Source: Planctomycetota bacterium
GTDB taxonomy: Bacteria; Planctomycetota; PLA2
Direction of reading: 5' to 3'
Assembly: GCA_036443405.1 (NCBI GenBank)
Contig: JAZFYD010000243.1
Coordinates: 2,908-66,907, forward strand
Length of the DNA stretch: 64,000 nt
The notes below the pieces were generated by a model. The model ran no database searches, had not been told where the DNA came from, and worked only from the letters and a program-made list of their open reading frames with translations. Made by a program: the position numbers and the translations under genes. Positions 1,291 to 58,437 of the stretch are shown here, one piece after another; within the stretch, counting starts at the first letter, position 1, and every line of letters begins with the position of its first letter.

Positions 1291-2777
<1,487 letters not shown>

Positions 2778-2781
<4 letters not shown>

Positions 2782-3881
2782 CGGCCCTTCCCCAGGAATG
2801 TGCGGATGGACTCCATGATCCCGTCCTTGTCCGGGATGTCGGACGTGATCACCTCGGGGTCCCCGCCGAACGAGTTGTCGAGGTCGTTCTTGAATTGGCC
2901 CGAGCCGTAGGTCGAACGCACCTGTCCGTAACAGAACACGTTGACCTTCGGCAGGACACGGCCTTTCAAAAGCGCAAGGCAGCGCGCGGTGTCGCCGCCG
3001 GACCAGTTGTCGCCGTCGCTGAAGTGGAACGGGTAGATGTTCCACTCGTCCACCGGGTAGTCGCGTTCGATGATCGAATCGCACAGCTCGTAGGCCGAGG
3101 AGATCTTCGTGCCGCCGGACTCGCGCAGGTGGAAAAACGTGTGGTGGTCGACCTCTTTGGCCTCGGCGTCGTGCACGATGTATCGCGTCTCGATGTGCTG
3201 ATACTGGCTCTTGAGCCAGGTGTCGATCCAGAACGCCTCGATGCGGACGATCTCTTTCTGCTCGTCGCCCATCGACCCCGAGACATCCATCATGTAGATG
3301 ATGACCGCGTTGCTCTGGGGGACGGTGCGCGGCTGCCAGGACCGGTAGCGCATGTCATCGCGGATCGGCACGATCCGGCCACCGCCTTTCCCGAAGTTGC
3401 CCAACGCGATCTCGCGTTTCAGAGCGCGCTTGAACGTGCGCTTCACGTGGCGAAGACTCTCGGGACCCACTCGGCGCAGCCCGCTGTATTTGCTGACCTC
3501 GGTACTGACCGCCTTCGCGCCCTTGGGCTCGATGTTGGGCAGTTCGAGTTCCTCGCCCAGGATGCGCGCGAGCTCCTCGAGGGTGACCTCGACTTCCAAT
3601 TCGTGCTCGCCCGCGCCCTCGCCGGCTTCGCCCTGGCCTTGCTGTTGCTCCGCCGGCACGGGCTCGCCGGGGTCGCCTTCGCCCTGACCGACGCCGCTCT
3701 GGTCCTGGTTTCCGAACATGAAGCGCGGGAGGCGAACCGACGGAAGCGGGATCGTGACCTTTTTCGCGCCGTGGTGCGCGATCATCGATCCGTTCGCGAT
3801 GTGCTTCTTCAGGTCGCGGCGGATCGCGCCACGCACGATCTGCTTGAAGCGGGTGTGGTCGAGTTCGATCCGGTTTACCAC
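2778..3881 (-). CDS. yeaH: YeaH/YhbH family protein (DUF444), PrkA partner
   Basis: 367 aa with an acidic/Gly-rich linker and a conserved C-terminal half ([13 protein letters not shown]...FHFSDGDNW). It sits in the typical position between prkA and spoVR. The start is GTG. Confidence 0.85.
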
Positions 3882-3893
3882 GATGGCCCTACG

Positions 3894-5948
3894 CTACGAC
3901 TTGTCCTGCTGTTTCACATCGCCACGCGCGAAGATGCTGGCCACGAAGTTGAGCGCGTCGGTCGCCGACTCCTCGTTGTAGCCGTAGTTCTTCACCAGGC
4001 GTGACTTGATGACGTCGATTTTCTCCTGCGTCTCGCGATCGACTACGGTGCTGACGAGGCTCGTGAGCTTGATCGAGTCCTTTTGGTCCTCGAACAGCTT
4101 CTTCTCGAGCGCGCGCTGCAGGCGCGGGTTTGCGCGGTAGTCGAACTTCTTGCCCTCGATCGCGAGCGCGCCGATGTAGTTCATGATCTCCCGGCGGAAG
4201 TCGTCCTTGGCGGACTCGCGCACGTCGATCTTCTCCTCGATCGACCGCATGAGCCGCTCGTCGGGCTCCTCCTCCTGGCCGGTGTACGGGTTGGTGACCC
4301 GCTCTTTTTGGGTGTACGCCTTCACGTTGTCGATGTAGTTCGCGCAGAGGCGCCCGATCTGCTCCTCGTCGGCGCTGATCGCACGCTGCACCTCGTTCTT
4401 CACGATCTCCGCGTACTCGTCCTTTACAACGGCGAGCAAGTCGCGGTAGTGCTTGCGCGTTTCCTCGAGCGTGATGAGCGAGTGGTGGTTCAGCCCCTCC
4501 TCGAGTTCGTTCAGCACCATGAACGGGTTGACGCACGTCTCCGAGTAGCTGCGGACGAGCGCGTTGCTGATCTTGTCCTGGATGTAACGCGGCGAAATGC
4601 CGTCCATCCCCTCGCGCGCGTTCTCCTCGCGCAACTCCTTGATGTTCTCCTCGGTGTAGCGCTCCAACGACTTGCCGTTGTAGAGCTTGAGTTTGTCCAT
4701 CAGGGACAGATCGCCCTTTTGGGAGATGCCGAGGCGCGTGAGCACCGCCCACATCGCGGCGATCTCGACGGTGTGCGGCGCAATGTGCTTCGCGACGCTC
4801 TCCTGAGTGAAGTCCTTCTGGTAGATCTGGATTTCGTTGTTGAGCCGCAGGTTGTAGGGCACGTCGATCTTGACCGTGCGGTCGCGGAACGCCTCCATCA
4901 GCTCGTTGTTCATGAGCTTTCTGTACTCGGGCTCGTTCGTGTGCCCGATGATCACCTCGTCGATGTATGTTTGCGCGAACTTCTTCGGCTTGATGCTGTG
5001 CTCCTGCGAGGCGCCCAGCAGGTCGTAGAGGAATGCGACATCCAACTTGAGGACCTCGATGAATTCGAGCACGCCGCGGTTCGCGACGTTGAATTCTCCG
5101 TCGAAGTTGAAAGCGCGCGGGTCGGAGTCGCTTCCGTACTCGGCGAGCTTTCTGTAGTTGACGTCGCCGGTCAGCTCCGTTGAGTCCTGGTTCTTTTCGT
5201 CCTTCGGCTGGAATGTGCCAATGCCGACGCGGTCCTTCTCCGACAATGCGATGCGGCGTACCACGATGTGGTCGAGGACCTTGGACAGGTTGCCGTCGTA
5301 CTGCGTCATCAACTGATCGAAGTAGTACCGGCTGACAGGACTCGGTTCGCCCTCGACACGGAGCTTGTATTCGCGGTCCCACGACGCGTTGATGCGCTCG
5401 ATGATCTGTTCGCGCGCGGCGTGCGGCAGAAGCAACAACGGCTCCTCGTGCATCGGCGACGGGACGAGGACCTCTTCGCCGTCCTCGTCGATACGCCAAC
5501 TGAAGGTGTACAGCGCGCCGTCGTCGGTGCGGCTGTACTCCTCGAGGCCCTTCTTGATGAGGCGGACGATCGTCGACTTGGACGAACCGACCGGTCCGTG
5601 CAGCAAGAGCACGCGCCGCTCGGAGCCGTATCCATGCGCGGCCGCCTTGAAGTGGTCGACCAGCGTTGCCAGAGACTTCTCGAGACCGAAGATCGCGTCC
5701 TTGCCCTTCCCCAGCGGGTCGGAGAAAAACGTGTAACGCGACATCTTCTCCTTGGCACTCGTGCCCACGTCGCTGCCGTGCGAGAGGATCATGTCGAAAA
5801 GCCGCTGGTGCGCGTTGCGCAACACGGCGGGTCTCTCGATGATCAGATCGAGGTACTGGCCGAAGGTGCCCGTCCAGTTCAACTCCCGAAACATCTCGGG
5901 ATCGCTGGCGGACTGAATGGCATCGATAATCTCGGATTTGGAAACCAT
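3894..5948 (-). CDS. prkA: PrkA-family serine protein kinase (AAA+)
   Basis: The 688-aa ORF has Walker [13 protein letters not shown] and PrkA-like domains. ATG at 5948 has GAGG about 8 nt upstream. The track ORF begins at a GTG at 5960. Confidence 0.9.
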
Positions 5949-5967
5949 AGGGGGCCTCACATCTTTA

Positions 5968-14076: not shown

Positions 14077-17000
14077 CTAGTTCAAACCGACCACACGGCC
14101 GGCTTCGATGTCGGCGAACTTCACGCTCACGCGGCGGCTGACCCCCGCCTCGGGCATCGTCACGCCGTAGAGCGTGTTGGCAACGGTCATCGTCGGCCGG
14201 GCGTGCGTGATCACGACGAACTGGCCGGAGACCGCGAAGTCCTTCAGCATCTCACACAGCCGCACGGTGTTGGATTCGTCCAGTGCGGCGTCCACCTCAT
14301 CGAGCAGGCAGAACGGCGGCGCCTTGGTCTGGTAGATCGAGAACAGCAGCGCAACCGTGGTCAGCGACTTCTCGCCACCGCTCAGAAGCGCCATGTTGCG
14401 CAGTTCCTTACCCGGAGGCCGCACCGCGATCTCGATGCCGGATCCGAGGACGTCCTCGGGATCCTGCAGCCGCAGCTCGGCCTTGCCGCCGCCGAAGAGC
14501 TTGCGGAAGACGACCTTGAAGTTCTCGCGCACCTCATCGAACGTCTTCTGGAAACGGGTCGTGCAGGTCTCGTCGATCTTCTCGATGGCGTCGCGCAGCT
14601 GCTTGTCGGCGGTGTTCAGGTCCGACTCCTCGCGGCGCATGAACGTAAGCTTCTCGTCGACGGACTCCAGCTCCTCCAACGCCGCGTGGTTGACGTTGCC
14701 CAGCCGTTCGAGTTTCGACCGGAGGTCCTCGATGCGTTGGTCGAGTTGCTCGGGATCGCCCTCGACCTCCTGGGCCGCGAGTTGCTCCTCGTCCCAGTCG
14801 ACGCCGTGGTCGCGCTTGACCTGCTCGAGCAGCGTCTCGATGCGCAACCGGTATTCGTTTTCCTTCAAGCGCTGCTGTTCGAGTTGCTCACGGCGTTTTT
14901 CGTGCAGATCGCGCAGCTGGTCCAGGTGGTCGCCGCTCGCCTTTAGGCGCGCCTCCATCTCCGCTGCAGACTGCCGGCGCTGCTCGATCTGTTTGGCCAA
15001 CGTGTCGACCGACCCGGCGCGCTCCGCTTCGAGGCGCTCGAGTGCCTCCACCTCGTTCTTGCACTCTGTCCCGCGCGCCCGGCAGCGCTCCGCCTCGACA
15101 CGACGGACCTCGGCCTCACGCTCGGCGGCGCCGATCGATTCCGTCAAAACACGGCACCGCTGCGCGGCCGCGCCGGCCTTCTCGGACCAGCGTGCGGCTT
15201 CGACCCGTGCATCGGTCTGGCGGGTCACCGCGTCGTGGCGCGCCAGCTCGGCGGTGGAAGTGCGGTCCTGCAGTCCCTTCGCTTCGTTTTCCAACACGTC
15301 GCGCTGCGACTCGGCCTTCGACCGGCGCTCACGCGCGACCTCGAGATCCGCTCCGTGCTCCTCGATGAGCCGCGCCACTTCGGAGCGCTCCGCATCCTCG
15401 AGCTCGCGTTCCTCGTTGCGCGATGCGACCGCCCGCTTCGCTGCCGCGACCTTTTCGGCCGCCACGCGCGTCTCGCTCGCGGTCTGCTTGATCGTGGGAC
15501 GCAACGCCGAAAGCGTGCGCTCCCACTCGACCGCCTTGCCGCGGGCTTGCTCCGCGCGGCCGCTGGCATCGGCGCGGGCTTCCGAGGTCTCGGCCAAACG
15601 CCGTTGGATCTGCGAGAGTTCCGTGTTTCTGGAAACCAAACCACCGCCCGCGCCGGCCCCGCCTGCGAGGGCGCCGTTGGCCGCCGCTTCCTCGCCGGTC
15701 CGGGCAATCGCGCGCCGGCCTTCCGCGAGCGCAATCTCCAGTGCGTCGTCGAGCGAATCCGCGATGCGGGTCGTCGCGAGCAGGGACGCGAGCAACGGAC
15801 GTGTCTCCGTGGCGATTGCGAGATCGTCGAACACGGGATCGAGCGGCGGCGCGTCATCCCGCAGACGGTCGAGGGGAATCAGCCGCGCGCGGCCGCGACG
15901 GTGCTCCTTGAGCCAAGCGATCGCAGCGCGAGCGTGCTCCGTCGTCTCAACGACCACGGCGCCGGCCAGATCACCCAAAGCGGAGTCCAAGAGCGCCGCC
16001 TGTTCGCCGACGTCCCCGAGGATGTCGGCCAACACGCCGCGCACACCGGCGATCCCACCGGCATCCGCCGCCTCGAGCAGCGCGCGCGTGCCGCCTCCGA
16101 GCCCCTCGCCTTCCTCGACGAGGCGTTGCAACAACTCGCGCCGTGCCTCGAGTCCCGCGGCCTCACCGGCGAGGTCGGCTGCATCGCCCGCAGCGCGATC
16201 CTTCTCGTCACGCGCCTCACGGGCCGCCTGTTCCGCCGCCGCGCTGCGCTCCTCGAGCGCGCGCAGCGTGTCCTCGGAACTCTTGAGCTCCAACTCCGCC
16301 TCGGCACACGCAACCTGAAGCTGCCGCAGCGATTCCGCGACGTCGGTCGCGCGCTGATCGAGACGGGCGCCGCGGCTCTGCAACGCGCGCAACTCGGCGT
16401 CGCTGTTCACCTCGGCGTTACGCGCTTCGGTCTCGACCGCGAAGGCCTCGGTGCGGCTCAGGCTGAGCGCCTCGATCTCCCGGCGCAGCACTTCGGCGCG
16501 CGCCTCGACCTCGCGGAGCAACGCGTCGGCGGCTTCGAGGCCGCGCGCGCGTTCGCCGCGCACCTCTTCGGCTTTCGCCTCTTCGTCTTGGGCCGTTTCC
16601 AACTCGGGTGTCAGGTCGTGCGCGCGACGCGAGGCCTCCGCGCCTTCGCTCTCCGCCTCCTGCGCACGCAACTCCAACTGCTCCGCCTCGCGCTCTCGGG
16701 CGTTGCGTTTTTCCGTCGAAGCCCGCTGCTCGCCGAGCAGCCTCGCCATCTCCGCCTCGCCCAGCGCGACGCTTTCGCGAAACTCGCTCTGCTGTTCGCG
16801 GTGGCCGGCCGTTTCCGCGACCGCTTCCTCGAGGTGGCGGCGCGCATCTTTTTCCGCGTCGTCCACCTGCGCCAGTGTTTCGGAAATGGTGTCGCGCTGC
16901 TTGGCCAGCACCGCGTAACGCGCGAGCGCACTCTGAACCCGCAGCGTGCGCAGCTCCTCGGTGAACTCCGTGAACCGCCGCGCCTTGCCAGCTTGGATCT

Positions 17001-17616
17001 TGAGACTGCGCTCGCGGGTTTCGAACTCGCCGAGCAGGTCACGCAGGCGTTCCAGGTTTTCCTGGGTACGTTCGAGCTTGCGCTGCGTCTCTTTGCGACG
17101 CGCTCGGTACTTCGCGATGCCCGCCGCTTCCTCGAAGACGGCGCGGCGCTCCACGGGATCGGCGCGCAGGAGCTGGTCGATGTTGCCCTGCTCCATGACC
17201 GCCATGGAACGGGAGCCGCCGCCGGAGTCCATCATCAACTCGCGCACGTCGCGCAGACGCACGGGGTTGCCATTGATCAGGTACTCGCTCTCGCCGGAGC
17301 GGTAGAGCCGGCGGCTGATCGCTACCTCTTCGTAGTCGATATCGAGGGTCGCGTCGGTGTTGTCGAAGACCAGCGAGACCTCCGCGAATCCAACGCCCTT
17401 GCGCCGGTCGGTGCCCGAGAAGATGACATCCTGCATGTCCTTGCCGCGCAGGCTCGTCGGCCGCTGTTCGCCCAGCACCCACTTGATCGCATCGACGACG
17501 TTGCTCTTGCCGCAGCCGTTGGGCCCGACGATGACGTTGATGCCGTCATCGAAGCTGAATTCCGTCCGGTCGGCGAAGCTCTTGAAGCCGTGCAGGATGA
17601 GTTTCTTGATCTTCAT
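14077..17616 (-). CDS. smc: chromosome segregation protein SMC
   Basis: 1179 aa. N-terminal MKIKKLILHGFKSFADRTEF...GPNGCGKSNVVDA and long coiled coils. The C-terminal signature is LSGGEKSLTTVALLFSI...LDEVDAALD. Confidence 0.95.
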   Translation of the reverse strand: MKIKKLILHGFKSFADRTEFSFDDGINVIVGPNGCGKSNVVDAIKWVLGEQRPTSLRGKDMQDVIFSGTDRRKGVGFAEVSLVFDNTDATLDIDYEEVAISRRLYRSGESEYLINGNPVRLRDVRELMMDSGGGSRSMAVMEQGNIDQLLRADPVERRAVFEEAAGIAKYRARRKETQRKLERTQENLERLRDLLGEFETRERSLKIQAGKARRFTEFTEELRTLRVQSALARYAVLAKQRDTISETLAQVDDAEKDARRHLEEAVAETAGHREQQSEFRESVALGEAEMARLLGEQRASTEKRNAREREAEQLELRAQEAESEGAEASRRAHDLTPELETAQDEEAKAEEVRGERARGLEAADALLREVEARAEVLRREIEALSLSRTEAFAVETEARNAEVNSDAELRALQSRGARLDQRATDVAESLRQLQVACAEAELELKSSEDTLRALEERSAAAEQAAREARDEKDRAAGDAADLAGEAAGLEARRELLQRLVEEGEGLGGGTRALLEAADAGGIAGVRGVLADILGDVGEQAALLDSALGDLAGAVVVETTEHARAAIAWLKEHRRGRARLIPLDRLRDDAPPLDPVFDDLAIATETRPLLASLLATTRIADSLDDALEIALAEGRRAIARTGEEAAANGALAGGAGAGGGLVSRNTELSQIQRRLAETSEARADASGRAEQARGKAVEWERTLSALRPTIKQTASETRVAAEKVAAAKRAVASRNEERELEDAERSEVARLIEEHGADLEVARERRSKAESQRDVLENEAKGLQDRTSTAELARHDAVTRQTDARVEAARWSEKAGAAAQRCRVLTESIGAAEREAEVRRVEAERCRARGTECKNEVEALERLEAERAGSVDTLAKQIEQRRQSAAEMEARLKASGDHLDQLRDLHEKRREQLEQQRLKENEYRLRIETLLEQVKRDHGVDWDEEQLAAQEVEGDPEQLDQRIEDLRSKLERLGNVNHAALEELESVDEKLTFMRREESDLNTADKQLRDAIEKIDETCTTRFQKTFDEVRENFKVVFRKLFGGGKAELRLQDPEDVLGSGIEIAVRPPGKELRNMALLSGGEKSLTTVALLFSIYQTKAPPFCLLDEVDAALDESNTVRLCEMLKDFAVSGQFVVITHARPTMTVANTLYGVTMPEAGVSRRVSVKFADIEAGRVVGLN

Positions 17617-17669
17617 GTGGATGCGGAGGATCGCGGCGAGCCGTCCTCCTCCGGTTGAGCCTTATCTTC

Positions 17670-19811
17670 TTAGATCGGCCGGGGTTTGTCGGCCGCCCTC
17701 ACGTATCGATCGGGCCAGGGCGCGAATTCGACGGCCCCCACCCGCAGGTCCCGCGCCAAGACTTCCAGCGCATCATAAAGGGCCTCCGGGCCCGGCGCGG
17801 TCTCGCGCGGGAAGCGCAATCCGAGCGTTGCCGACGAAGCGTCGAGCCACCCCTCGGCGGCAGCGAGCCCGGCGGACTGCAGGGTCGCCGAACAGTACCG
17901 GTCCGAGTCTCCAGGCAACTCCGATTCCGGCGGGAAAGCCCGGGCGATCCGGCGGTTTCGGATCCGGCCGGCGTCCAAAAACCGCCGCAGCGCCTCGCCG
18001 GCCCGATCCGACCCTGGGATGACCTTGAGGCGCATCTTGCGCGCCTCCTCCATCGCCCAAAGCGACACATACGACCGAATGCGTCCCGCCAAACGGAGAG
18101 CGTCCTCGCCGTCCGCCAGCAGCTCGGCCGCCGCGCGGACTCCGGACAGATGGAGAAGATCGAGCCCCGATCCGCCAGCGATACGCGGCCGTGCGCCCGC
18201 CGCGATGCGATAGAGCGGGCCGCTCGGGTCCGCCGCAAGTGCCGCGACGAAGCTCCGTTTCTGGCGCAGGGCCTTCAGCGCGAGGCCAACGCGGTGCTCC
18301 AGCGCCTCGAACAGGGCCGGCTCGTCCAGCCGGTCGAATCCGGCGGCGACATCGAGCACGTTGACGGCGACAAACCCGCAGAAACCGACGGCGGCCTCGC
18401 CGGCCGTCCTCAACTCCTCAGCCGCTTCCGCGCTCGAAAGCCGGTACGCCGAGGTCGATCGGGCGCCGTCGGAGCGATCGAACGCGATTCGGATGCGTCC
18501 CGTCTCGGAGGCGGCGGCAAGCAGCAGTAAAACCGCGGAGCGGTTCTTGTCGTCGGCCAACTGCTCGGGCGTCGCCTGGATCAGAAGGCGCGGAAGCGAC
18601 CGCATCCCTCCATCGCGGAAGAGCGCCCAGTGCTCGCGCACGAGACTCTCCGCGAGGCGAGTCTCGTCATTTGCGACCAGCGGGACGCGCAGACAGATCC
18701 GGAAACGGCCCCCGCGCGGGTCGATGGTTCGCAAAACGGGGTGCGCCAGAAGCCGCCGCGCCGCTTGCAGCGCGCGCTCGCCCCTCAACTGGCTCTCGGA
18801 AACGCGGTTCTCACTCTCGGGGGCCCCGTCGTTTAGCGACCCGGCGGCCGCGGCCCGCGCCACGCTCGACGGCGTGACCGGCTCTAGCCACGCGGGGCCA
18901 TCGGCGGGGCAAACGTCGAGGCAGACCTCGCGTGTCACCACCTCGCTCAACCGTCCGGCCGACAGCGCCGCGGTCTCCACCCAGGCATCGGGATCCGCCG
19001 CCGTACCTATGCGTCCCGCAGCGGCAATCCACTCGAACGGGCAACCCGCGTCGTAGACGTGAATGCGTGCGTCCAAGTGCGCGTTGACAACCTCCGCGCT
19101 GTAAACCTCCGCCAGCGCGTACTGCGTCAGCACGGTCTCCGCGACGGTTCGTTTGAGATCCTGCGGCCCGGTGGGACGCCAACCGCACTCTTTGTGGCCG
19201 CGTAACAGGCGGTCGATGTCGAAACGCGGAAGGCCTACGAGCGCCTGGCGCGCAACGCTTTCGCTGTAGCCCATCAGGAACAGCTCGGCCTCGACGAGTG
19301 AGCGGATCTGCGAGGTTGCGACGCGTTCCGGGCTGCTCTCGAAGATCTTGGCCTCGACGCGCGCGGCCACTTCGGCCGCCACATGTTCGTCGAGGTCCGC
19401 TTCGCGCACGAGCGCCTCCTGCACGCGCCGCTTGGACCACGGCGTGACGACGGCCCGCAAGGGGTTGCCCACCAGGGGCGCACCGCCGCCGCCTTCGGCG
19501 TGCACGGTCACGCGATCGCGTGCGCGCGCGCGGCGGTCCCGGTAGAGGATGTAGGCCTTGGCGGTGCTGGCGTGGCCGGTCTCGATGAGCACCTTCTCGA
19601 CCATGTCCTGGATCTCTTCGATCTGCGGAACACGGCCGGGGTACCGCTTTTCCAAAAACAGTGTGACGACACCGCTCAACTCCTCCGAGAGAAAGCGGTC
19701 CTCGCCTCCGACGGCGCAGGCGGCCTTGTAGATCGCGTCCGCGATCTTGCTCTCGTCGAAATCGACGAGACGGCCATCGCGTTTGCGGACTTTCGTGATG
19801 CGCCCGATCAC
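17670..19811 (-). CDS. NrdD-like (class III ribonucleotide reductase-like) protein with tandem N-terminal ATP-cones and no recognizable glycyl-radical C-terminus
   Basis: GTG at 19811 overlaps the nrdR stop (GTGA). ATP-cone 1 is VIGRITKVRKRDGRLVDFDESKIADAIYKA...AKAYILYR. A second cone-like segment is VATSQIRSLVEAELFLMGYSESVARQAL. AETVLTQYALAEVYSAEVVNAHLDARIHVYD resembles E. coli NrdD LLAGIVAKHYARQHLLPRDVVQAHERGDIHYHD. GFVAVNVLDVAAGFD...LFEALEHRVGLALKALRQKR resembles NrdD GVISLNLPRIALEAKG...FWKLLDERLVLARKALMTRIARL. No RVCGY-type glycyl radical motif or Cys-rich Zn ribbon is present at the C-terminus. Confidence 0.7.
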   Translation of the reverse strand: MIGRITKVRKRDGRLVDFDESKIADAIYKAACAVGGEDRFLSEELSGVVTLFLEKRYPGRVPQIEEIQDMVEKVLIETGHASTAKAYILYRDRRARARDRVTVHAEGGGGAPLVGNPLRAVVTPWSKRRVQEALVREADLDEHVAAEVAARVEAKIFESSPERVATSQIRSLVEAELFLMGYSESVARQALVGLPRFDIDRLLRGHKECGWRPTGPQDLKRTVAETVLTQYALAEVYSAEVVNAHLDARIHVYDAGCPFEWIAAAGRIGTAADPDAWVETAALSAGRLSEVVTREVCLDVCPADGPAWLEPVTPSSVARAAAAGSLNDGAPESENRVSESQLRGERALQAARRLLAHPVLRTIDPRGGRFRICLRVPLVANDETRLAESLVREHWALFRDGGMRSLPRLLIQATPEQLADDKNRSAVLLLLAAASETGRIRIAFDRSDGARSTSAYRLSSAEAAEELRTAGEAAVGFCGFVAVNVLDVAAGFDRLDEPALFEALEHRVGLALKALRQKRSFVAALAADPSGPLYRIAAGARPRIAGGSGLDLLHLSGVRAAAELLADGEDALRLAGRIRSYVSLWAMEEARKMRLKVIPGSDRAGEALRRFLDAGRIRNRRIARAFPPESELPGDSDRYCSATLQSAGLAAAEGWLDASSATLGLRFPRETAPGPEALYDALEVLARDLRVGAVEFAPWPDRYVRAADKPRPI

Positions 19812-20278
19812 GCTTTGCGCTTCTTCTTGGGCTTGAGCATGGGCTTGATCTCGTCCATGAACTCGTTCACGTCCTTGAAGTCGCGGTAGACCGAGGCGAA
19901 CCGGACATAGGCCACTTGGTCCACCTTCTTCAGCTCCCGCATCAGGAGCCGCCCCACGAACTTGCAGGGAACCTCCCGGTCGAACTGCTCGGTGACCTGA
20001 TGCTCGATGTGGTTGACGATGTCGTCGAGCACGGCCATGCTCACGGGGCGCTTCTCGCACGCCTTGATCAGGCCGGCGAGGATCTTGCGGCGCTCGAACG
20101 GCTCCCGGCGACCGTCCTTTTTGACCACCCGGATCGGGGACTCCTCGATCCGCTCGTATGTCGTGAATCGGCGGCTGCACGCCTCGCACTGGCGTCGGCG
20201 CCGGATGGCGAACCCGTCGGCGCTGGCGCGGGAATCGATGACTCGGTTGTCATCGGACTTGCAGAACGGGCATTTCAT
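19808..20278 (-). CDS. nrdR: transcriptional repressor NrdR (Zn-ribbon plus ATP-cone)
   Basis: N-terminal MKCPFCKSDDNRVIDSR...CEAC zinc ribbon and an ATP-cone (VVKKDGRREPFERRKILAGL...AYVRFASVYRDF). This is the canonical NrdR architecture. Confidence 0.9.
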   Translation of the reverse strand: MKCPFCKSDDNRVIDSRASADGFAIRRRRQCEACSRRFTTYERIEESPIRVVKKDGRREPFERRKILAGLIKACEKRPVSMAVLDDIVNHIEHQVTEQFDREVPCKFVGRLLMRELKKVDQVAYVRFASVYRDFKDVNEFMDEIKPMLKPKKKRKA

Positions 20279-20466
20279 CCGGTGGTGTCTTCGACGAGCC
20301 TGTCTTTGAGCCTGTTTTTTCTCGAACGAGCGTCATCCAGTCGTCGGGATCCCAGTCAGCCTTTGAAACTGGTTGAGGTCCCACTCTTTTGCAACCCACC
20401 GGGCCCGGCCAGCGGCCCGAACGACCGCCCCTTGCACGGGGCTGATATAGGGATCGAACCCGACAC

Positions 20467-20517
20467 CACACGATACATGGCTATAAGGACGCTAGCACAC
20501 TAGGTATTGTGCGTCAA
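20467..20517 (-). promoter_or_regulatory. candidate nrdR promoter (TTGACG-17-TAGCGT) with an NrdR-box-like palindrome in the spacer and a weaker second box about 30 bp away
   Basis: On the minus-strand sense: gcgTTGACGcacaatacctagtgtgcTAGCGT. The spacer (20495-20511) is exactly the palindrome CACACTAGGTATTGTG. It matches 13/16 to the NrdR box consensus acaCwAtATaTwGtgt. A second box-like sequence acacgatacatggcta (20467-20482) matches 10/16, with centres 30 bp apart. Confidence 0.45.
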
Positions 20518-20545: not shown

Positions 20546-20575
20546 TTGACTGGCACCTGACCATGCGCATACTGT
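20546..20575 (+). promoter_or_regulatory. sigma70-type promoter for the metallophosphoesterase gene
   Basis: TTGACT at 20546-20551, a 16-18 nt spacer, and CATACT/TACTGT at 20568-20575. It is about 40 nt upstream of the GTG start. Confidence 0.5.
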
Positions 20576-20612: not shown

Positions 20613-21371
20613 GTGCCCCAAATCGCCATCGTCTCCGACATCCACGCCAACATCGAGGCCCTAGACGTCGTCCTCGCGGACATCAAACGCAAATTGATCA
20701 AGGACATCGTCTGCTTGGGCGACATCATCGGGTACGGCCCGAACCCCCGCGAGTGCCTGCAGGCCCTGATGGGCTGCAAGGCAGTCCTGATGGGCAACCA
20801 CGAGGAAGCGGTTCTCTACTACGGTGAGGACTTCAACCCGAAGGCCCGCGAGGCCATCGACTGGACCCGGGACCAGCTCAACCGCCCGGAGTTCCCCAAG
20901 GACGAGAACTACGACCTCTGGAACTTCCTCGGTGTCATGGAGCAGATCATCGTCACGGACGAAGCCATGTTCGTGCACGCCTCGCCGCGCGATCCGACCA
21001 AGGAGTACGTGACACCCGAGGACACCCGCAAGAACCAGGAGAAGCTGCGCGACATCTTCACGCGATTCGAGCGCATCTGCTTCATCGGGCATAGCCACAT
21101 CCCGGGTGTTTACACGCAGGAGCTGCGCTACATCGATCCGAAGACGATCGGTAGCGAATACAAGCTCGAGGATGGCCGCAAGGCGCTGGTCAACACCGGC
21201 GCGGTCGGACAGCCCCGCGATGGCGATCCCCGCGCGTCCTACGTGACATTCGACGGTCGGACCGTGCGGTTCCACCGTCTCGACTACGACTTCAACAAGA
21301 CGATGGACAAGATCTACAAGGAAGATCGACTCCCCAACTATTTGGCCGACCGTCTCGCCGTAGGCCGCTAA
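20613..21371 (+). CDS. calcineurin-like metallophosphoesterase
   Basis: Carries DIHAN, GDIIGYGPNP, GNHE and GHSH metal-binding motifs. The start is GTG. A sigma70-like promoter lies upstream. Confidence 0.8.
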   Translation: MPQIAIVSDIHANIEALDVVLADIKRKLIKDIVCLGDIIGYGPNPRECLQALMGCKAVLMGNHEEAVLYYGEDFNPKAREAIDWTRDQLNRPEFPKDENYDLWNFLGVMEQIIVTDEAMFVHASPRDPTKEYVTPEDTRKNQEKLRDIFTRFERICFIGHSHIPGVYTQELRYIDPKTIGSEYKLEDGRKALVNTGAVGQPRDGDPRASYVTFDGRTVRFHRLDYDFNKTMDKIYKEDRLPNYLADRLAVGR

Positions 21372-21426: not shown

Positions 21427-23922
21427 ATGCCTCGCCTGCTCCTGATCGTGACCCTCGGACTCGTCCTCTTCATGGTGATGGGCAAGGGCTGCCAAAGCGG
21501 CCCCAAGCTCCCGCCTGCGCTCGGTCAGCGCAATCTGCAGCCCTGGGATCCGGCGACCGTTGTCGAACTGAGATCCGGCGACACCAAGCTGCAACTCGAC
21601 GCCGACGGCCGCATCCTGTCGCTTGTGGTGAACGGTAAGACCCTGATTCAGCCGGCACCGCTTCACAACCGGCCGCTCGCGATCGTCGAACGGCGGGCCA
21701 ACGGCGAGCTTGTTTTGCTGCCCGGCTTCGCACAGGACGAAGCGGCCGACGAAAAGAGCATCACGTACATCTCGAAGATCCGCAGCCAGCGGCTAGAGAA
21801 ACACATCGCGATCGATGACGACGGCAACGGAATCACCGTTTCGCTGAAGGCCCACGGGTTCGAGTTCGACAGCGGCGGATTCGAGCTGACCGCGCTGGGC
21901 GGCGTGCCCATGTCCCAGGACGAAGACGGGCCGGTCACGGGTCTTGTGGAATGGACGAAACAAAGGGCCCAGATCTACCCGTTTGCGCGGCTGGCCAAGG
22001 ATCAGGCCGAAAAGCGCATGGTGCAGGAGCGCCGGCTCAGGAACGAAAGGAAGGTCGAAGAGCCCGGCCCCGGCCGGTATCAGCGCATCAAGCGCGATCT
22101 CGACATGATCGGCGCCCTGGGCACCGGCGGTTTGCTGAAGTTCGAGGGCATCACCGGAGTTCGAGCCGTCAACACCCTCGCGTATCGCGCCGTGCGGGAC
22201 GGGTCGCCGGAACGGGACATGGAATCCTGGATCTCGCTCGACCACGAAGCGGGCAAACTCGAGGCGAGCTTCAGGATCACGTGGGCCTCGTACGAGTCCT
22301 TCGCGAACGAGCACGCCCATCTGCCCGCGTTCCGCAAAGGCAACTCCACGGAGCACGTCCTCGAAAACGGCACGATGCGCATCGTGTTTTCGGACCGCGG
22401 CGCCGGGATCGCGCGCGCACACCTGAAGAAGTACGCGCTGGGCGCGGACGACGAACTCTCGCCGGAAACGTGGATTCCAATCGTGCGCGAGGAGATCCCT
22501 GCGAGCGAACGCGCCCTCACGCTCAAGTTCCGCTCGATCAGCCTGGCCCAGTTCGGCGGCCTCGATTCGGTGACCTCGATTTGGAAGGTGGTCGAACAAA
22601 GCGCGAGGCACATCCGTTTCCGCTTGGAAGCCGATAACGGCTGGCGCGTCGAGAAGACCGTCACGCTGCCGGGCGAGGACGAATACGACCTGTGGGTTGA
22701 TATCGAAGCGCGCAAGCCGGACGGGGAGAGGGACGAGACGTTCAAGTTCACGCTCGTCGGCCCCTCGGGCATCTACATGACCGACGCGTACCGCGGCGTC
22801 TTCGGCGCGGACCCGCCGCAGGGGCTCTTGCTCGAGCGACCCGGCGAGACCGAAAACGAGTCGATCGACGACATCCTCGAGGAGCCCCTCGTGAGCGACT
22901 ACTCGACCGAGCAGCGCGGGCGCTGCGAAGCGGTCGCGATCGGCGGCGCGTACTTCCTTGGTGCGCTCATCACCGAAGCCACGTTCGACGCCAACGACCA
23001 GCCGCGCGGCGTCGTCACGCGCGCTGCGATCACCGACGTGGAACTCAGGAAACCGATCCCCCGCGTGAGCGAGGACGAGCCACTCAAATCGTCGCTTCGT
23101 GGCGAGGTCTCCTGCTTGCTCCGATTCGATCAGGGCCGCGCTGAGACGAGGTTCCAGCTCTATCTCGGGCCGCGGCGCGTGGAGAACCTCGATCCGCTCG
23201 GCATCCGCCGCGCCATCGACTTCGGATTCTTCTCAGCCATCGGCCGCGTTCTGTTGTGGCTGATGAAGTTCTTCGCGGGCATCTTCAACAGCTACGGCGT
23301 CGCGATCATCTGCATGACGCTGTTCATCCGTGCGCTGCTCTTCCCGGTGTCGTACAAGACGCAGCTGAGCATGCAGCGTTACTCGCGGCGCATGCAGAAG
23401 ATCAAGCCGATCCTGGAGAGGCTGCAGGAACAGTACAAGTCGAATCCGCAGCGCCTGAACCAGGAACGCATGAAGGTGATGCGCGAGCACAAGATCGGTC
23501 TGCCGCTCGGCTGCCTCACGCTGTTCCTGCAGATCCCGATCTGGATCGCACTCTTCTCGAGCCTGCGCGTCGAGTTCTCGCTGCGACACCAACCGTTTCT
23601 GTGGGCCAACGATCTGGCGATGCCCGACGCGTTGTTCCAACTCCCGTTCTGGCCGGGTTCGTTCAACGCGCTCCCGCTCCTGATGCTCGGCCTCTGGGTC
23701 TGGCAGCAGAAGGCGACGCCGACGCCGGCCAGCGACGATCCCCAAGTGCAGGCGCAGATGAAGATGTTGAAGTTCATGCCGTTCATGTTCTTCATCTTCC
23801 TCTACAAGTATGCGTGCGCGCTGAGTGTGTATATGTGCATCTCCAGCGCCTGGGGCATCGTCGAGGGCAAGATGGTCCGCCGAGCAATCAAGCGGTTGGA
23901 CGACGCACCAGCGGCCGGGTAG
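21427..23922 (+). CDS. yidC: membrane protein insertase YidC (long periplasmic domain)
   Basis: 831 aa with an N-terminal TM. The C-terminal 60 kDa insertase core is present (FIRALLFPVSYKTQLSMQRY...KMLKFMPFMFFIFLYKYACALSVYMCISSAWGI). GGAG lies 6 nt upstream of the ATG. Confidence 0.9.
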   Translation: MPRLLLIVTLGLVLFMVMGKGCQSGPKLPPALGQRNLQPWDPATVVELRSGDTKLQLDADGRILSLVVNGKTLIQPAPLHNRPLAIVERRANGELVLLPGFAQDEAADEKSITYISKIRSQRLEKHIAIDDDGNGITVSLKAHGFEFDSGGFELTALGGVPMSQDEDGPVTGLVEWTKQRAQIYPFARLAKDQAEKRMVQERRLRNERKVEEPGPGRYQRIKRDLDMIGALGTGGLLKFEGITGVRAVNTLAYRAVRDGSPERDMESWISLDHEAGKLEASFRITWASYESFANEHAHLPAFRKGNSTEHVLENGTMRIVFSDRGAGIARAHLKKYALGADDELSPETWIPIVREEIPASERALTLKFRSISLAQFGGLDSVTSIWKVVEQSARHIRFRLEADNGWRVEKTVTLPGEDEYDLWVDIEARKPDGERDETFKFTLVGPSGIYMTDAYRGVFGADPPQGLLLERPGETENESIDDILEEPLVSDYSTEQRGRCEAVAIGGAYFLGALITEATFDANDQPRGVVTRAAITDVELRKPIPRVSEDEPLKSSLRGEVSCLLRFDQGRAETRFQLYLGPRRVENLDPLGIRRAIDFGFFSAIGRVLLWLMKFFAGIFNSYGVAIICMTLFIRALLFPVSYKTQLSMQRYSRRMQKIKPILERLQEQYKSNPQRLNQERMKVMREHKIGLPLGCLTLFLQIPIWIALFSSLRVEFSLRHQPFLWANDLAMPDALFQLPFWPGSFNALPLLMLGLWVWQQKATPTPASDDPQVQAQMKMLKFMPFMFFIFLYKYACALSVYMCISSAWGIVEGKMVRRAIKRLDDAPAAG

Positions 23923-23932
23923 CGCGGGGATG

Positions 23933-24084
23933 CCCTTATCCTTACCCTTGTCCTAGACCCTCTACCCTTTTCCTTTTCCTGCTCCCTCCGCCCTTCCCCC
24001 AGGGCTAAGAACAAGGGGCACAGGAAAAGGGTCGAGTGCAAAGGGTCTAGGACAAGGACTAGGGCAAGGGCAGGGGGTGCGCCT
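23933..24084. other. long imperfect CT-rich/GA-rich inverted repeat (about 50-nt arms) between convergent yidC and radC; candidate bidirectional terminator or structured RNA
   Basis: The left arm is cccttatccttacccttgtcctagaccctctacccttttccttttcctg. The right arm is caggaaaagggtcgagtgcaaagggtctaggacaaggactagggcaagggcaggggg. The core cccttgtcctagaccct and agggtctaggacaaggg are perfect reverse complements (17 bp). Confidence 0.6.
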
Positions 24085-24742
24085 ACAGCATGCCCGACTC
24101 CTTGAAACTCGTGTACGCGCCATCCCCCACGATCACGTGGTCGAGGATGCGAATGCCGAGGAGGTCGCTGGCGGCCATCAGCCTGCGCGTAACCGCGAGG
24201 TCTTCGTCCGAGGGCGCGGGATCGCCCGACGGATGATTGTGGACGAGCACTACGGCGCCCGCCGACTCCCGTACCGCCGGACCGAACACCTCCCGCGGGT
24301 GCACAATCGAGTTGGTCAGAGAACCCTCGGAGACGATCTCCTCGCGCAGCACACGATGGCGCGCGTCGAGTAGCACGACCAGGAACACCTCGCGTTTCCA
24401 ATCCCGCAGCCGCGCGTGGTAGTGGTCAAAGATCTGGCGCGGGCTCACAAACGGATCGCCGGTGGTCATGCGTTCCGACATCACGCGGCGCGCGAGCGTG
24501 AACAGCGCCGCAAGGCGCGCCGCGCGCACGGAGCCCACCCCTGGAAGCGCGCGTAGTTCGCGCGGGGCCAGCCGGGACAACCGGCGCAGGCCCCCCGCGT
24601 CGTGAAGGAGCGAGCGAGCGCCCTCGGCCGCGCGCTGCGTGGTGGCGCCGGGGCCGAGCACGAGCGCGAGCAACTCCTCGTCGGCATGGTTTTCGAGGGC
24701 GGCGTTGGACCGCTGACCGGGTGATGCGAGATCGTTCGGCAC
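24083..24742 (-). CDS. radC: RadC-family JAB-domain protein
   Basis: The JAMM motif HNHPSGDPAPSDED and the UPF0758 N-terminal HhH-like region are present. Confidence 0.85.
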   Translation of the reverse strand: MPNDLASPGQRSNAALENHADEELLALVLGPGATTQRAAEGARSLLHDAGGLRRLSRLAPRELRALPGVGSVRAARLAALFTLARRVMSERMTTGDPFVSPRQIFDHYHARLRDWKREVFLVVLLDARHRVLREEIVSEGSLTNSIVHPREVFGPAVRESAGAVVLVHNHPSGDPAPSDEDLAVTRRLMAASDLLGIRILDHVIVGDGAYTSFKESGML

Positions 24743-24891: not shown

Positions 24892-25602
24892 ATGCCCCGC
24901 TTCCAAGGCCGCCTCGCATCGGCTGCCCTCGTATTCCTGTTTCAACCGGCGCCCGCCAACGCCGACTGCCTGCTCATCACCGAACTCGTCACCGACCCGC
25001 AGGCGGATCACTCCGAAAACACCGGTGGCAACGGCGTCCCGTTCGACGACGTGCCCGGAACCGGAACCGTGTCGAGTCTCGACGAATACGTTGAGATCTT
25101 CAACGCGTCGGGCTATGTCGTCGATCTGACCGGGTTCCGTCTCGAGTTCTACGACGCGACCCCGAGTTCGTTCGTGTTCGGGACGAGCACGGGCGTCGTT
25201 CGCATCTCGCTCGGCAGCACGTTGGACTCGCTCTTACCCGGTGCGTTTGCGCTTGTCGGAAACCCGCCCGGCGCCCTCAATAACCGCATCACGGTGTTGC
25301 TTCGGGACCCAGGCGGGGGCGTGGTCGATTCGCTGATCGACGTCGACGGCAACGCGACGGGCGCGTCCGATGAAGCGCTCTACCGGCCATGGACGGGCGA
25401 CCGGTTTCTCGACGACCCGATTCTGGGCCCCATCACGCCGCTCGGCTTCCCGCCCGCCGTGAGACCGGTTCCCGAGCCCGCCACGCTCGTGATGGTCTGC
25501 GTCAGCGGCTTTTCAGCCGCGCTTGCCAGCGTGCGAAGAGCTCGCTGCGCCCGGCGCCGAAAACGGCACGCAGTGCCGCGGTCTCCGACTCCGACGACCT
25601 AG
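24892..25602 (+). CDS. secreted lamin-tail-domain (LTD) protein with PEP-CTERM sorting signal
   Basis: A signal peptide is followed by the LTD-like signature LLITELVTDP...DEYVEIFNASGYVVDLTGFRLEF. The C-terminus is VPEPATLVMVCVSGFSAALASVRRARCARRRKR, with PEP, a hydrophobic stretch and an Arg cluster. AAGGAG lies 5 nt upstream of the ATG. The tail after the Arg cluster is longer than usual. Confidence 0.6.
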   Translation: MPRFQGRLASAALVFLFQPAPANADCLLITELVTDPQADHSENTGGNGVPFDDVPGTGTVSSLDEYVEIFNASGYVVDLTGFRLEFYDATPSSFVFGTSTGVVRISLGSTLDSLLPGAFALVGNPPGALNNRITVLLRDPGGGVVDSLIDVDGNATGASDEALYRPWTGDRFLDDPILGPITPLGFPPAVRPVPEPATLVMVCVSGFSAALASVRRARCARRRKRHAVPRSPTPTT

Positions 25603-49615: not shown

Positions 49616-50499
49616 GTCAGCCACCGCCGCACTTCGATTTCGAGATCCACGTGATGGACCTGGGACACCTTCGTCCGCACCCGGTCGATCAGCGCCAGCA
49701 CGTCGGCTGCCGACGCCCCGCCATCGTTTTCGATGAAGTTGGCGTGTATGTCCGAGACGCGCGCCGCGCCCACCATGTTGTTTCTGCACCCCGCCGTGTC
49801 GATGAGACGCCCGGCCGAATCTCCGGCAGGGTTCCTAAACACGCAACCCGCGTTGCCGACCCACCCGGGTTGGGTTTGCCGCCGCTCCTTGACGATGGCG
49901 CGAGCAAAGCCGCGCACGACGGACGGCTCGCTCGGGTCGAGTCGCAACCAGGCGCGCAAGACGATGCGATCGCCCACCGCGCTCTTCCGATAACGGAAGA
50001 AACTCGCGGGCGGTTCGAACGACTCCAAATCGCCATCGCGCGTCAGCAGTTCGAGAAAGACCACGCGGCTGCCGATGGCGCCGTGCTTCCCTCCCGCGTT
50101 GCCGAAGATCGCGCCGCCGATGCGGCCGGGAATGCCCGCGAGGCACTCGGTGCCGCTCAGCCCCGCCGAACCGGCCGCGCGCACCGCGGCGATCAAACGC
50201 GCTCCGGCCTCTGCGACGAGCACCGGCCCGTTCGTGCCGACCGCGTTCAAACGGTTCAAGCTGATGACCGCGCCTTCAATCGGTTCGTCGCCGACGAGCA
50301 GGTTGCTGCCCCCGCCGAGGATGCGAAACGGCATTCCGATCCGGCGCAGCATCGCGACGGACTCAAGGAGTTCCTCGGTGTCCGCGGGTTCGAGATAGAC
50401 GCGTGCGTCGCCGCCGATGCGCCACGTCGTCAGCGGCGCCAACGAGTGGTCGGTCGCGACGAGGCCTCTAAAGCGCCTGTGCCAGTCGACCGGCAACAT
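49612..50499 (-). CDS. murB: UDP-N-acetylenolpyruvoylglucosamine reductase
   Basis: FAD-binding N-terminus (TTWRIGG...ILGGGSNLLV) and the MurB C-terminal domain. The ATG overlaps the murC 3' end by 32 nt. Confidence 0.9.
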   Translation of the reverse strand: MLPVDWHRRFRGLVATDHSLAPLTTWRIGGDARVYLEPADTEELLESVAMLRRIGMPFRILGGGSNLLVGDEPIEGAVISLNRLNAVGTNGPVLVAEAGARLIAAVRAAGSAGLSGTECLAGIPGRIGGAIFGNAGGKHGAIGSRVVFLELLTRDGDLESFEPPASFFRYRKSAVGDRIVLRAWLRLDPSEPSVVRGFARAIVKERRQTQPGWVGNAGCVFRNPAGDSAGRLIDTAGCRNNMVGAARVSDIHANFIENDGGASAADVLALIDRVRTKVSQVHHVDLEIEVRRWLT

Positions 50500-55339: not shown

Positions 55340-55364
55340 CTTCGTTCGTCGTTCGTTTCGTTCG

Positions 55365-56786: not shown

Positions 56787-56837
56787 CAGGTCGCCTCCGG
56801 TCCACTCTTACTACATGTAGTGGACCTATGTCAATAA

Positions 56838-58280
<1,443 letters not shown>

Positions 58281-58437
58281 GACCGCGGGCTCCGACAGCC
58301 CCGCCCCATCCGCCGACTCGGACAGGGTGCGTGCGTGTCGCACCCCGTCCCCACTATCTACTCGCGCCAAGGAGGCGCCCGCCAAATCCGGGTTCCGGCC
58401 CAAGGCCAGGGTCCGCACCCCAGCCCGCGCAATTGAC

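Follow-up and report, generated by a model that had tools for sequence, protein, structure and literature searches.

A probable ATP-cone pseudoenzyme derived from the class III ribonucleotide reductase NrdD and encoded in overlap with nrdR in uncultured Planctomycetota

Introduction

Few allosteric systems have been studied as well as ribonucleotide reductases (RNRs) and the repressor NrdR, which have the ATP-cone as their common switch. For class III enzymes (NrdD) with an N-terminal ATP-cone, reference structures are available from Streptococcus thermophilus (9D3X), Prevotella copri (8P23), Thermotoga maritima (4U3E) and phage T4 (1H79). In the active NrdDs dATP leads to dimerisation of the cones and ATP breaks the cone dimer (PMC12662201), the cone exerting its effect via the position of the protein's own NxN flap (PMC12662201, PMC11226230). 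Here a 64-kb stretch of DNA from a bacterium of the phylum Planctomycetota (contig JAZFYD010000243.1; the whole stretch is referred to below as the window) was analysed, in which a gene for a 713-aa NrdD homologue is located between nrdR and smc. In comparison with the NrdDs listed above, an NxN flap, a second His in HxHD, a thiyl Cys and an ESPAES phosphate loop are missing from this protein, and it has no Zn ribbon, no glycyl-radical domain and no activase; it is called here the dead NrdD.

The nearest relatives of the window protein are functional two-cone NrdDs of Planctomycetota (~800 aa; Candidatus Brocadia P0083, P0099). They have the same pair of cones, the same nrdR-(nrdD)-...-smc array and NrdR boxes upstream of it, and differ in that all catalytic motifs and the adjacent nrdG are kept; the identity between the cores is as low as 11–19%. 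NrdR itself is a repressor composed of a Zn ribbon and an ATP-cone. The dead NrdD differs from NrdR in lacking the DNA-binding Zn ribbon and in having a barrel scaffold of 450 aa. The cones of NrdR drive its nucleotide-dependent switching between oligomers (PMC9110341), and no protein partner of NrdR has been described (PMC9110341, PMC12176259).

Two other systems are comparable to a lesser extent. The inactive R1 homologues of betaherpesviruses (human cytomegalovirus UL45, murine cytomegalovirus M45, and that of human herpesvirus 6B) have lost activity and kept a non-catalytic role (PMC5469499, PMC11772975). They are the nearest conceptual precedent, being RNR catalytic subunits which were retained after the loss of enzyme activity; however, these are viral proteins of class I origin which target the immune signalling of the host; dependence on an ATP-cone is not known for them, and their evolutionary tie to the dead NrdD goes only via the RNR superfamily. 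In NrdB of Leeuwenhoekiella blandensis (5OLK) a cone situated outside the catalytic subunit is reported to provide ATP/dATP control via nucleotide-driven oligomerisation (PMC5794259). This NrdB is itself an active radical-generating subunit, whereas the window protein has no known catalytic role.

In the literature outside subscription-only papers no published NrdD homologue without a glycyl-radical domain and no NrdR partner was found. The arrangement studied here had been put forward as undescribed by a first reading of the window made from the sequence alone (the original prediction below), and no account of it was met in the same literature. As follows from the data presented here, the dead NrdD is very probably a selected ATP-cone pseudoenzyme derived from nrdD. 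Its most plausible role, to which we assign a probability of about 0.5, would be that of a nucleotide-sensing partner or modulator in the NrdR-dependent control of deoxyribonucleoside triphosphates (dNTPs).

Results and Discussion

Organization of the locus

The array consists of the following elements (positions are those of the window).

19808..20278, minus strand: nrdR, transcriptional repressor of ribonucleotide reductase genes, 156 aa (profile and domain matches)
19808..19811, minus strand: GTGA, in which the nrdR stop TGA (19810-19808) lies over the GTG start (19811-19809) of the dead-NrdD gene (read directly)
17670..19811, minus strand: dead NrdD homologue, 713 aa plus stop, with TAA at 17670-17672 (sequence)
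17617..17669, minus strand: spacer of 53 nt between the dead-NrdD gene and smc (read directly)
14077..17616, minus strand: smc, 1179 aa, the third gene of the array (SMC_N 234.8 bits, SMC_hinge)

All coordinates and sequence statements of the original prediction were found to be correct when the minus strand was read, including the GTGA overlap of the nrdR stop with the GTG start and the position of smc 53 nt downstream on the same strand (start at 17616, SMC_N and hinge identified). The frame of the dead-NrdD gene stays open upstream of the GTG, to a maximum of 839 aa, since no stop intervenes; its relatives usually have no in-frame start other than this GTG. A consensus scan, which non-canonical signals would escape, revealed no terminator-like or promoter-like site in the spacer between the dead-NrdD gene and smc. 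The 713-aa product is identical across three independent assemblies, is labelled publicly as 'ATP cone domain-containing protein', and the window product matches MEE8107363.1.

Homology to NrdD and loss of the catalytic elements

Similarity of the 713-aa protein to NrdD was originally noticed in two blocks. Both are real and occupy the right positions, the window GFVAVNV...KALRQKR being aligned with GFQNITINLPQA...KAHLQKK of the real NrdDs, and the homology extends well beyond them. The real two-cone planctomycetal NrdDs (~800 aa) match the protein at E ~1e-86, with an identity of 45–53% to the functional enzymes over aa 1–260. The comparison of cores only, made by hhalign between the profile of real NrdD cores and that of dead cores (aa 261–713, 35 dead-family sequences), gives a probability of 99.1% and E=1.5e-18 over 293 columns.

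The family profiles are in agreement with a strongly altered NrdD. Pfam NRDD is passed marginally (28.6–29.9 bits vs 26.2) over 40 residues, aa 216–255. All NrdD equivalog families are failed by a wide margin: TIGR02487 gives 13.5 bits vs the cut-off of 326.35, and NF006126 (90.6 vs 548), NF005497 (77.4 vs 764) and NF006732 (53.5 vs 657) receive their bits from the cone. The AlphaFold2 (AF2) model, when compared by Foldseek, demonstrates a ten-stranded α/β barrel of the type found in RNRs and glycyl-radical enzymes, closest to NrdD; 5olk is also among its structural matches. A control model built from an alignment of the dead family only was confident and had the same secondary structure and the same top Foldseek hits, which rules out that the fold was imposed by the real NrdDs in the alignment.

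The following parts of the protein were mapped in and around the core.

19047..19166, minus strand: first core helix with vestigial HxHD (IHVYD), aa 216–255, the sole stretch matched by Pfam NRDD
17724..19031, minus strand: NrdD-type α/β-barrel core without catalytic residues, aa 261–696
18435..18479, minus strand: vestigial finger loop, aa 445–459, DRSDGARSTSAYRLS vs DRDEVTLSACCRLRT in the real enzymes (alignments)
17706..17720, minus strand: C-terminal PWPDR motif in place of the Zn ribbon and the glycyl-radical domain (sequence)

The catalytic hallmarks of the family have been defined by Bimaï et al. (PMC11226230), and every one of them is missing from the window protein, which together with the homology of the core bears out the original view of a catalytically dead NrdD homologue. 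Where real planctomycetal enzymes carry ENSNI as the NxN flap, the window protein has ECGWRPTGP and the dead forms show ECG--W / DR---. The region of the HxHD motif that holds the substrate triphosphate reads VVNAHLDARIHVYD in the window protein, where H-x-H-D has become IHVYD with Tyr for the second His; the dead family has H-x-[YLF]-D. The finger-loop thiyl Cys (Cys416 in P. copri NrdD, PcNrdD) lies within SACCRLRT of the real enzymes, which corresponds to RSTSAYRL in the window, and is replaced in all 26 full-length dead forms. The substrate-triphosphate loop EESPAES is changed to GSDRAGE. Both CxxC pairs of the four-Cys Zn ribbon are deleted (26 of 26 dead forms), and the glycyl-radical motif (RVxGY; Gly711-Tyr712 in PcNrdD, RIVGY in the real planctomycetal enzymes) is absent, the window protein ending ~90 residues earlier, with ...PWPDRYVRAADKPRPI. 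Taken together, the 26 full-length dead forms are devoid of NxN, the CC finger loop, ESPAES, the CxxC pairs and RIVGY, and HxHD is retained in one of them.

Column conservation reveals no conserved Cys in the core of the dead family; several Arg, Lys and Glu are invariant there. In the C-terminal motif the close clade, i.e. the group of dead forms to which the window protein belongs, shows no variation at W699, P700, D701 and R702, and the distant dead clade has PWPRR. The allosteric specificity site (s-site) of NrdD is located at the dimer interface and involves a β-hairpin and loop 2. The strongly conserved NLDTxSAPAKHARTLTGHLN of the real NrdDs aligns with PcNrdD ~185–205, the s-site hairpin included (phmmer, a partial core alignment to 8P23), and in its place the dead protein has unrelated sequence.

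The absence of an RVCGY-type motif and of a Cys-rich Zn ribbon, as well as that of nrdG, had been noted at the outset, and each was confirmed by tblastn of the window. Searches with real NrdDs and their C-termini found neither a hidden or frameshifted glycyl-radical domain nor a second nrdD, and six NrdG sequences gave a best E-value of 0.18. Among the ten largest other open reading frames (ORFs) of the window there is no class I or II RNR. A C-terminus concealed by a frameshift is ruled out by the null result of tblastn beyond aa ~640 equivalents together with the three identical assemblies.

The core also contains a lineage-specific low-complexity insert of ~35 aa (window 18777-18890, aa ~308–345, VTPSSVARAAAAGSLNDGAPESENRVSESQLRGE), which is absent from L081 (the closely related locus described below) and all other family members and has a column conservation of 0.08–0.22 and a predicted local distance difference test (pLDDT) score of 65–74.

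ATP-cones of the dead NrdD

The N-terminal part of the protein harbors two cones.

19527..19793, minus strand: ATP-cone 1, aa 7–95, canonical, of the two-nucleotide type (PF03477, 83 bits)
19245..19445, minus strand: ATP-cone 2, aa ~123–189, degenerate (PF03477, 25.1 bits vs the cut-off of 25.8)

The original description of two ATP-cones thus holds in full for cone 1 and in part for cone 2, which matches profile positions 11–78 only and has no N-terminal K-R hairpin signature. The same combination of a canonical and a degenerate cone is present in the real planctomycetal NrdDs.

The nucleotide contacts were mapped by HMMER alignment to S. thermophilus NrdD with the residue lists of Andree et al. 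(PMC12662201). K19, R20, I32, Q79 and Y98 of site 1 correspond to K10, R11, I23, Q68 and Y87 of the window protein, and K31, K38, Y101, R105 and R109 of site 2 to K22, K29, Y90, R94 and R98. Thus, along with the match to the PF03477 profile, the protein has the hairpin K-R, the helix-1 K-I, the helix-3 Q and the helix-4 Y/R contacts of an ATP-cone. The ten residues are invariant or near-invariant in the close clade; nearly all of them are kept in the distant and basal dead clades, at a level equal to that of 27 real NrdDs. The identity of cone 1 to a clostridial outgroup is 54% in the dead forms vs 53% in the real enzymes. Judging by these residues, cone 1 looks fully functional as a sensor of ATP and dATP. 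Since the NxN flap motif is gone, the receiver of its signal must differ from that in the active NrdDs.

Selection acting on the gene

The ratios of nonsynonymous to synonymous substitution rates (dN/dS) were calculated according to Nei and Gojobori for a single pair, the window and its closest relative, locus L081 (JGI 3300033147), where L081:990-2968 has 90% nt identity to window 17670-19811. The values are 0.01 for nrdR, 0.067 for cone 1, 0.053 for cone 2, 0.106 for the dead core and 0.092 for the whole dead protein. They indicate that the cone is under full constraint and that the barrel is faster-evolving yet still constrained. Past the break caused by a deletion in L081, which covers window aa ~433–461 (the vestigial finger loop), dN/dS is 0.07. 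The loss of the catalytic motifs, dN/dS of 0.09–0.11 and a monophyletic clade of >100 clusters are together what is expected of a pseudoenzyme.

With these values a non-functional relic in slow decay, the frame of which is kept open by 68% G+C, is strongly disfavoured and hardly credible. It would account for the loss of all catalytic elements, for a core evolving much faster than in the real enzymes and for the frameshifting 70-nt deletion in L081, and high G+C does breed spurious long ORFs in the window. However, dN/dS is 0.09–0.11 with the core included, length and sequence are conserved over >100 clusters in a clade with Smc identity down to ~39%, cone 1 shows the same degree of conservation as that of active enzymes, and AF2 is confident on the alignment of the dead family only.

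G+C is high (68%), and the window contains many spurious long ORFs. That the dead-NrdD gene is another of these was considered and is ruled out by dN/dS and the >100 homologues.

Family, phylogeny and gene order

The first search yielded ~47 homologue clusters (at 90% identity) of 650–705 aa with 50–63% identity, and the profile of more distant dead forms ~70 further clusters of 700–790 aa. Taken together there are about 115 clusters, with lengths of 640–790 aa throughout. All members of the dead family belong to uncultured Planctomycetota (metagenome-assembled genomes, MAGs, and metagenomes). They are named in databases 'ATP cone domain-containing protein', 'hypothetical protein' or, wrongly, 'ribonucleoside-triphosphate reductase'. 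A search with the core only among 1.84 billion representative proteins gave 20 matches, all of the dead family. Core identity is 74–84% among the real enzymes and 44–51% within the close dead clade, as compared with the 11–19% between dead and real forms. Neighbour joining places the dead forms in one clade, on long branches, with the real planctomycetal NrdDs as its sister group.

The order nrdR - NrdD (real or dead) - smc is kept in 71 planctomycetal-type loci, those of anammox bacteria among them; smc is found downstream in nearly all of the planctomycetal loci retrieved. At the real loci nrdG (CxxxCxxC, ~245–260 aa) lies between nrdD and smc. In the close dead clade nothing lies between the dead gene and smc, the spacer being 29–58 nt, and smc is 19–180 nt downstream in most dead loci. 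The identities of NrdR and Smc drop in the order of the NrdD tree (close dead, distant dead, real), and a vertical descent of the array fits because both follow this order. Smc identity falls to 32–36% across L001–L071 despite the shared gene order, and to ~39% within the clade that holds the dead forms.

From its place in the nrdR-nrdD-nrdG-smc array and from the single sister clade, the dead gene is best read as the old nrdD, that is, a positional orthologue which lost catalysis once, and not as an extra paralogue. The original prediction of a paralogue does not agree with this, the gene occupying nrdD's own place in the conserved array. The loss of nrdG came later, in the sublineage of the window.

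The adjacency of smc had been taken as a sign that dNTP status is linked to chromosome segregation. The same adjacency is found at functional nrdD loci and represents inherited synteny, which provides no evidence of a new link of this kind: it is older than the catalytic loss because smc also follows functional nrdD-nrdG. This bears directly on the proposal that the dead protein is a partner of Smc which couples dNTP/ATP status to chromosome condensation or segregation. In its favour, the distance to smc is 19–180 nt in most dead loci, the spacer has no predicted terminator and the synteny is phylum-wide. Such a partnership is nevertheless very unlikely, as smc follows functional nrdD-nrdG in anammox and other planctomycetes and no feature of the protein points to Smc. 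nrdR, the dead gene and smc may be co-transcribed from the promoter with the NrdR box, and across the phylum smc may be part of an operon under NrdR control or be reached by read-through from it.

In the basal dead subclade (L049:4681-5340, L054:12261-13037, L051, L055 and L070) an NrdG-like radical S-adenosylmethionine (SAM) gene stands between the dead gene and smc. Its products are of 220–258 aa and contain CxxxCxxC and GGEP (Pfam Radical_SAM E=2e-14 and 6e-12), and the dead NrdD beside it has neither a glycyl-radical domain nor the radical Cys. Retention of this gene in L049, L051, L054 and L055, along with several invariant Arg, Lys and Glu in the core, could speak for an enzyme of different chemistry, possibly radical-based and with a partner acting in trans. 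We consider this highly improbable: the dead forms lack a conserved Cys, a glycyl-radical domain and the substrate-phosphate motifs, and the clade of the window is without an activase.

Several observations were made on the related loci besides the dead forms. A second radical-SAM-like ORF of ~328 aa, which starts with MKEA.FYE...C.LCPH.C and contains CxxxCxxC, lies between nrdG and smc in five loci with real NrdD (L010, L011, L014, L015, L030). Many anammox NrdDs (Scalindua / Brocadiia; gene start near locus position 10001) retain the finger-loop CCRLRT, EESPAES and the two CxxC pairs of the Zn ribbon, with nrdG next to the gene, and have no canonical glycyl-radical motif (L016, L020, L014, L018, L023, L024, L027, L029, L031–L036, L046, L063 and L068). 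Their absence of the motif is not a sequencing error because it is consistent over ~17 loci. In the C-terminal ~40 aa L010 has YGITRIVGYYSRVDNW, L016 SGLERVDDYNERLSNW and L020 YSVRR-NATSDRVNNW; the motif is present in Brocadia P0083, as RIVGYFS. Seven loci (L004, L013, L017, L019, L025, L035 and L060) come from MAGs labelled Chloroflexota, Nitrospirota, Anaerolineales or Parcubacteria, yet are planctomycetal by sequence and synteny; these discordant labels are probably due to mis-binning.

NrdR and its overlap with the dead gene

The NrdR of the window is a member of its family by all features inspected. It matches TIGR00244 with 209.8 bits (cut-off 124.65), the Zn_ribbon_NrdR and ATP-cone domains are both detected, the Zn ribbon has two CxxC pairs, and a cognate promoter box is present. 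D15, R17 and RRRR26–29, known as DNA-contact residues of NrdR (PMC9110341), are all found in it.

The 4-nt overlap of stop and start is present in 13 of 13 loci of the close clade (the window and L081 counted in) and in 16–17 of the 22 distant and basal dead loci, which makes 29–30 of 35 for the dead loci together, as compared with 1 of 34 loci with real NrdD. The sequence of the overlap in the dead loci is GTGA, seldom TTGA. Between nrdR and real nrdD the spacing ranges from -26 to +544 nt.

Promoter and NrdR box

Upstream of nrdR the following elements were identified.

20512..20517, minus strand: -35-like hexamer TTGACG of the nrdR operon promoter, 17 nt from TAGCGT
20497..20512, minus strand: NrdR box 1, GCACAATACCTAGTGT, filling the 17-nt spacer between the -35 and -10 hexamers (consensus match)
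20489..20494, minus strand: -10-like hexamer TAGCGT, weak, below the threshold of the consensus scan
20466..20483, minus strand: tentative, weaker second NrdR-box-like element, ..ATGTATCGTGTGG, 29–31 bp after box 1
20279..20488, minus strand: long 5' leader from the promoter to the nrdR ATG (sequence)

Box 1 is the sole match to the NrdR-box consensus ACACWATATATWGTGT in the 64-kb window at <=3 mismatches (0.02 expected; a match in 2 of 100 shuffled sequences). It carries both the C and the G 9 bp apart that are highly conserved in NrdR boxes (PMC9110341). Its palindrome is kept in L003, L004, L005, L008, L009, L021, L056 and L081. Upstream of nrdR, 11 close-clade loci and L081 have TTGAC(G/A) at the corresponding position, and GCTAGCGT around the -10 hexamer is kept in all close-clade upstream regions. 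Of the second box-like element the right half TATC[CG]TGTG[GT] is kept in the close-clade loci, and 9–10 of its 16 positions agree with the consensus.

The NrdR box is located at -234 from the nrdR ATG in the window and in L081 (L081:290-522) and at ~-66 in the other clade members; the extra leader of the two loci amounts to ~170 nt. Distant dead loci have a diverged palindrome upstream, e.g. CCACAAGGGATTGTGG. Paired NrdR boxes precede nrdR in the real anammox NrdD loci as well, and for this reason autoregulation of nrdR is regarded as ancestral.

The leader of nrdR has no match in Rfam and its folding (z = -1.46) is in no way unusual. A riboswitch or another structured leader was considered here and is ruled out by these two results.

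The box and the overlap bear on two further explanations of the dead protein. One is that it serves as a trans-acting allosteric subunit of a resident class II or class I reductase, either supplying ATP/dATP on/off control by its cone or forming hetero-oligomers via the scaffold. Such a role would agree with the intact cone sites, with the selection on the scaffold and with an operon under an NrdR box, as RNR genes are; moreover, ATP-cones are evolutionarily mobile and may regulate from another subunit, as is reported for NrdB of Leeuwenhoekiella (PMC5794259). It is nevertheless unlikely, given that the window holds no other RNR gene, that there is no known example of a class III scaffold which binds an enzyme of class I or II, and that the conserved 4-nt overlap favours NrdR over an unlinked gene.

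The other explanation is an ATP/dATP-binding protein with a regulatory or structural function unrelated to NrdR and RNR, for which the linkage would be inherited order. The occurrence of nrdR-nrdD-smc with real NrdDs is in line with this, and the high divergence of the core, which found only the dead family in the core-only search, fits neofunctionalisation. This explanation is rather unlikely: the 4-nt overlap became fixed specifically in the dead lineage, the promoter with the NrdR box was retained, and the RNR-type regulatory cone is the most conserved part of the protein.

Proposed role of the dead NrdD

The proposed course of events is as follows. An ancestor of a large uncultured planctomycetal clade lost the substrate motifs, the thiyl Cys, the Zn ribbon and the glycyl-radical domain of its NrdD, and the sublineage of the window lost the activase gene nrdG too. 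Purifying selection still acts on the NrdD barrel, which is kept as a scaffold, and most of all on the two-site N-terminal ATP-cone. The comparisons show the homology, the loss of catalytic elements, the selection, the conservation of the cone residues, the conserved overlap and the promoter box, from which nucleotide binding, a contact with NrdR and a regulatory output are inferred. The pseudoenzyme is expected to bind ATP or dATP and to shift its cone arrangement or oligomeric state, as the cones of active NrdDs and NrdR do. It would be expressed from the NrdR-box promoter, with its translation coupled one-to-one to that of NrdR.

NrdR is the best candidate for a partner because of the fixed overlap, the common cone chemistry and NrdR's own cone-driven change of oligomeric state. 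The original idea of a nucleotide-sensing partner of NrdR gains strength from the ten conserved cone residues, the overlap fixed in the dead lineage and the NrdR box of the operon promoter. Cone-cone contacts with NrdR could, for example, alter how much NrdR occupies its boxes. A specific partnership of the two proteins is put forward tentatively. More speculatively still, NrdR would have in the dead NrdD the first protein partner known for it, an ATP/dATP sensor of RNR origin which, assembled with NrdR through cone-cone contacts, would adjust how strongly the RNR regulon, and possibly smc, is repressed.

Several observations weigh against a role in NrdR-dependent control. Many real loci also show short overlaps or gaps between nrdR and nrdD (-26 to +28 nt), and the adjacency of the two genes is ancestral, so that linkage alone could reflect inheritance and no new partnership. 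To our knowledge, NrdR acts alone in all organisms studied to date. The NxN flap, on which the cone acts within real NrdDs, is gone. The working RNR of the organism is not encoded in the window. The NrdG-like gene kept in the basal dead subclade is unaccounted for by a nucleotide sensor. Finally, the 70-nt deletion in L081 shifts the frame, leaving two ORFs of 412 and 253 aa in place of one gene; it could be an assembly error or a true disruption showing that the gene is dispensable.

If the dead NrdD is a partner of NrdR or of a resident RNR, it would add a new layer to dNTP homeostasis in the form of a trans-acting cone module. A whole bacterial clade has dropped the chemistry of class III RNR, and over deep time its cone, scaffold, NrdR-box promoter and fixed translational overlap with nrdR have all been retained. 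Should the proposed role be true, this would be the first bacterial RNR pseudoenzyme with a regulatory job, and also the first of class III, which arose when a planctomycetal lineage abandoned anaerobic ribonucleotide reduction. It would also provide a natural 'cone-only' system for the discrimination of ATP and dATP free of catalysis. The labels 'ribonucleoside-triphosphate reductase' given by some annotation pipelines would, in reconstructions of metabolism, falsely credit these uncultured planctomycetes with anaerobic synthesis of dNTPs.

Other features of the window

A divergent sigma-70-like promoter, TTGACT-16-CATACT, is located at window 20546-20573 on the plus strand and faces a metallophosphoesterase gene (20613-21371); its GTCAAG / AGTATG elements are kept upstream of nrdR in relatives. 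It is followed by genes for YidC of 831 aa with a long N-terminal extension (21427-23922, plus strand), a RadC-like JAB protein (24083-24742, minus strand) and a lamin-tail-domain protein with a PEP-CTERM-like C-terminus, VPEPATL... (24892-25602, plus strand). A PrkA / SpoVR stress-kinase cluster occupies window 1291-5960 (minus strand), and window 50000-60300 contains a cell-wall (dcw) cluster that includes MurG, a Mur ligase and a penicillin-binding-protein transpeptidase.

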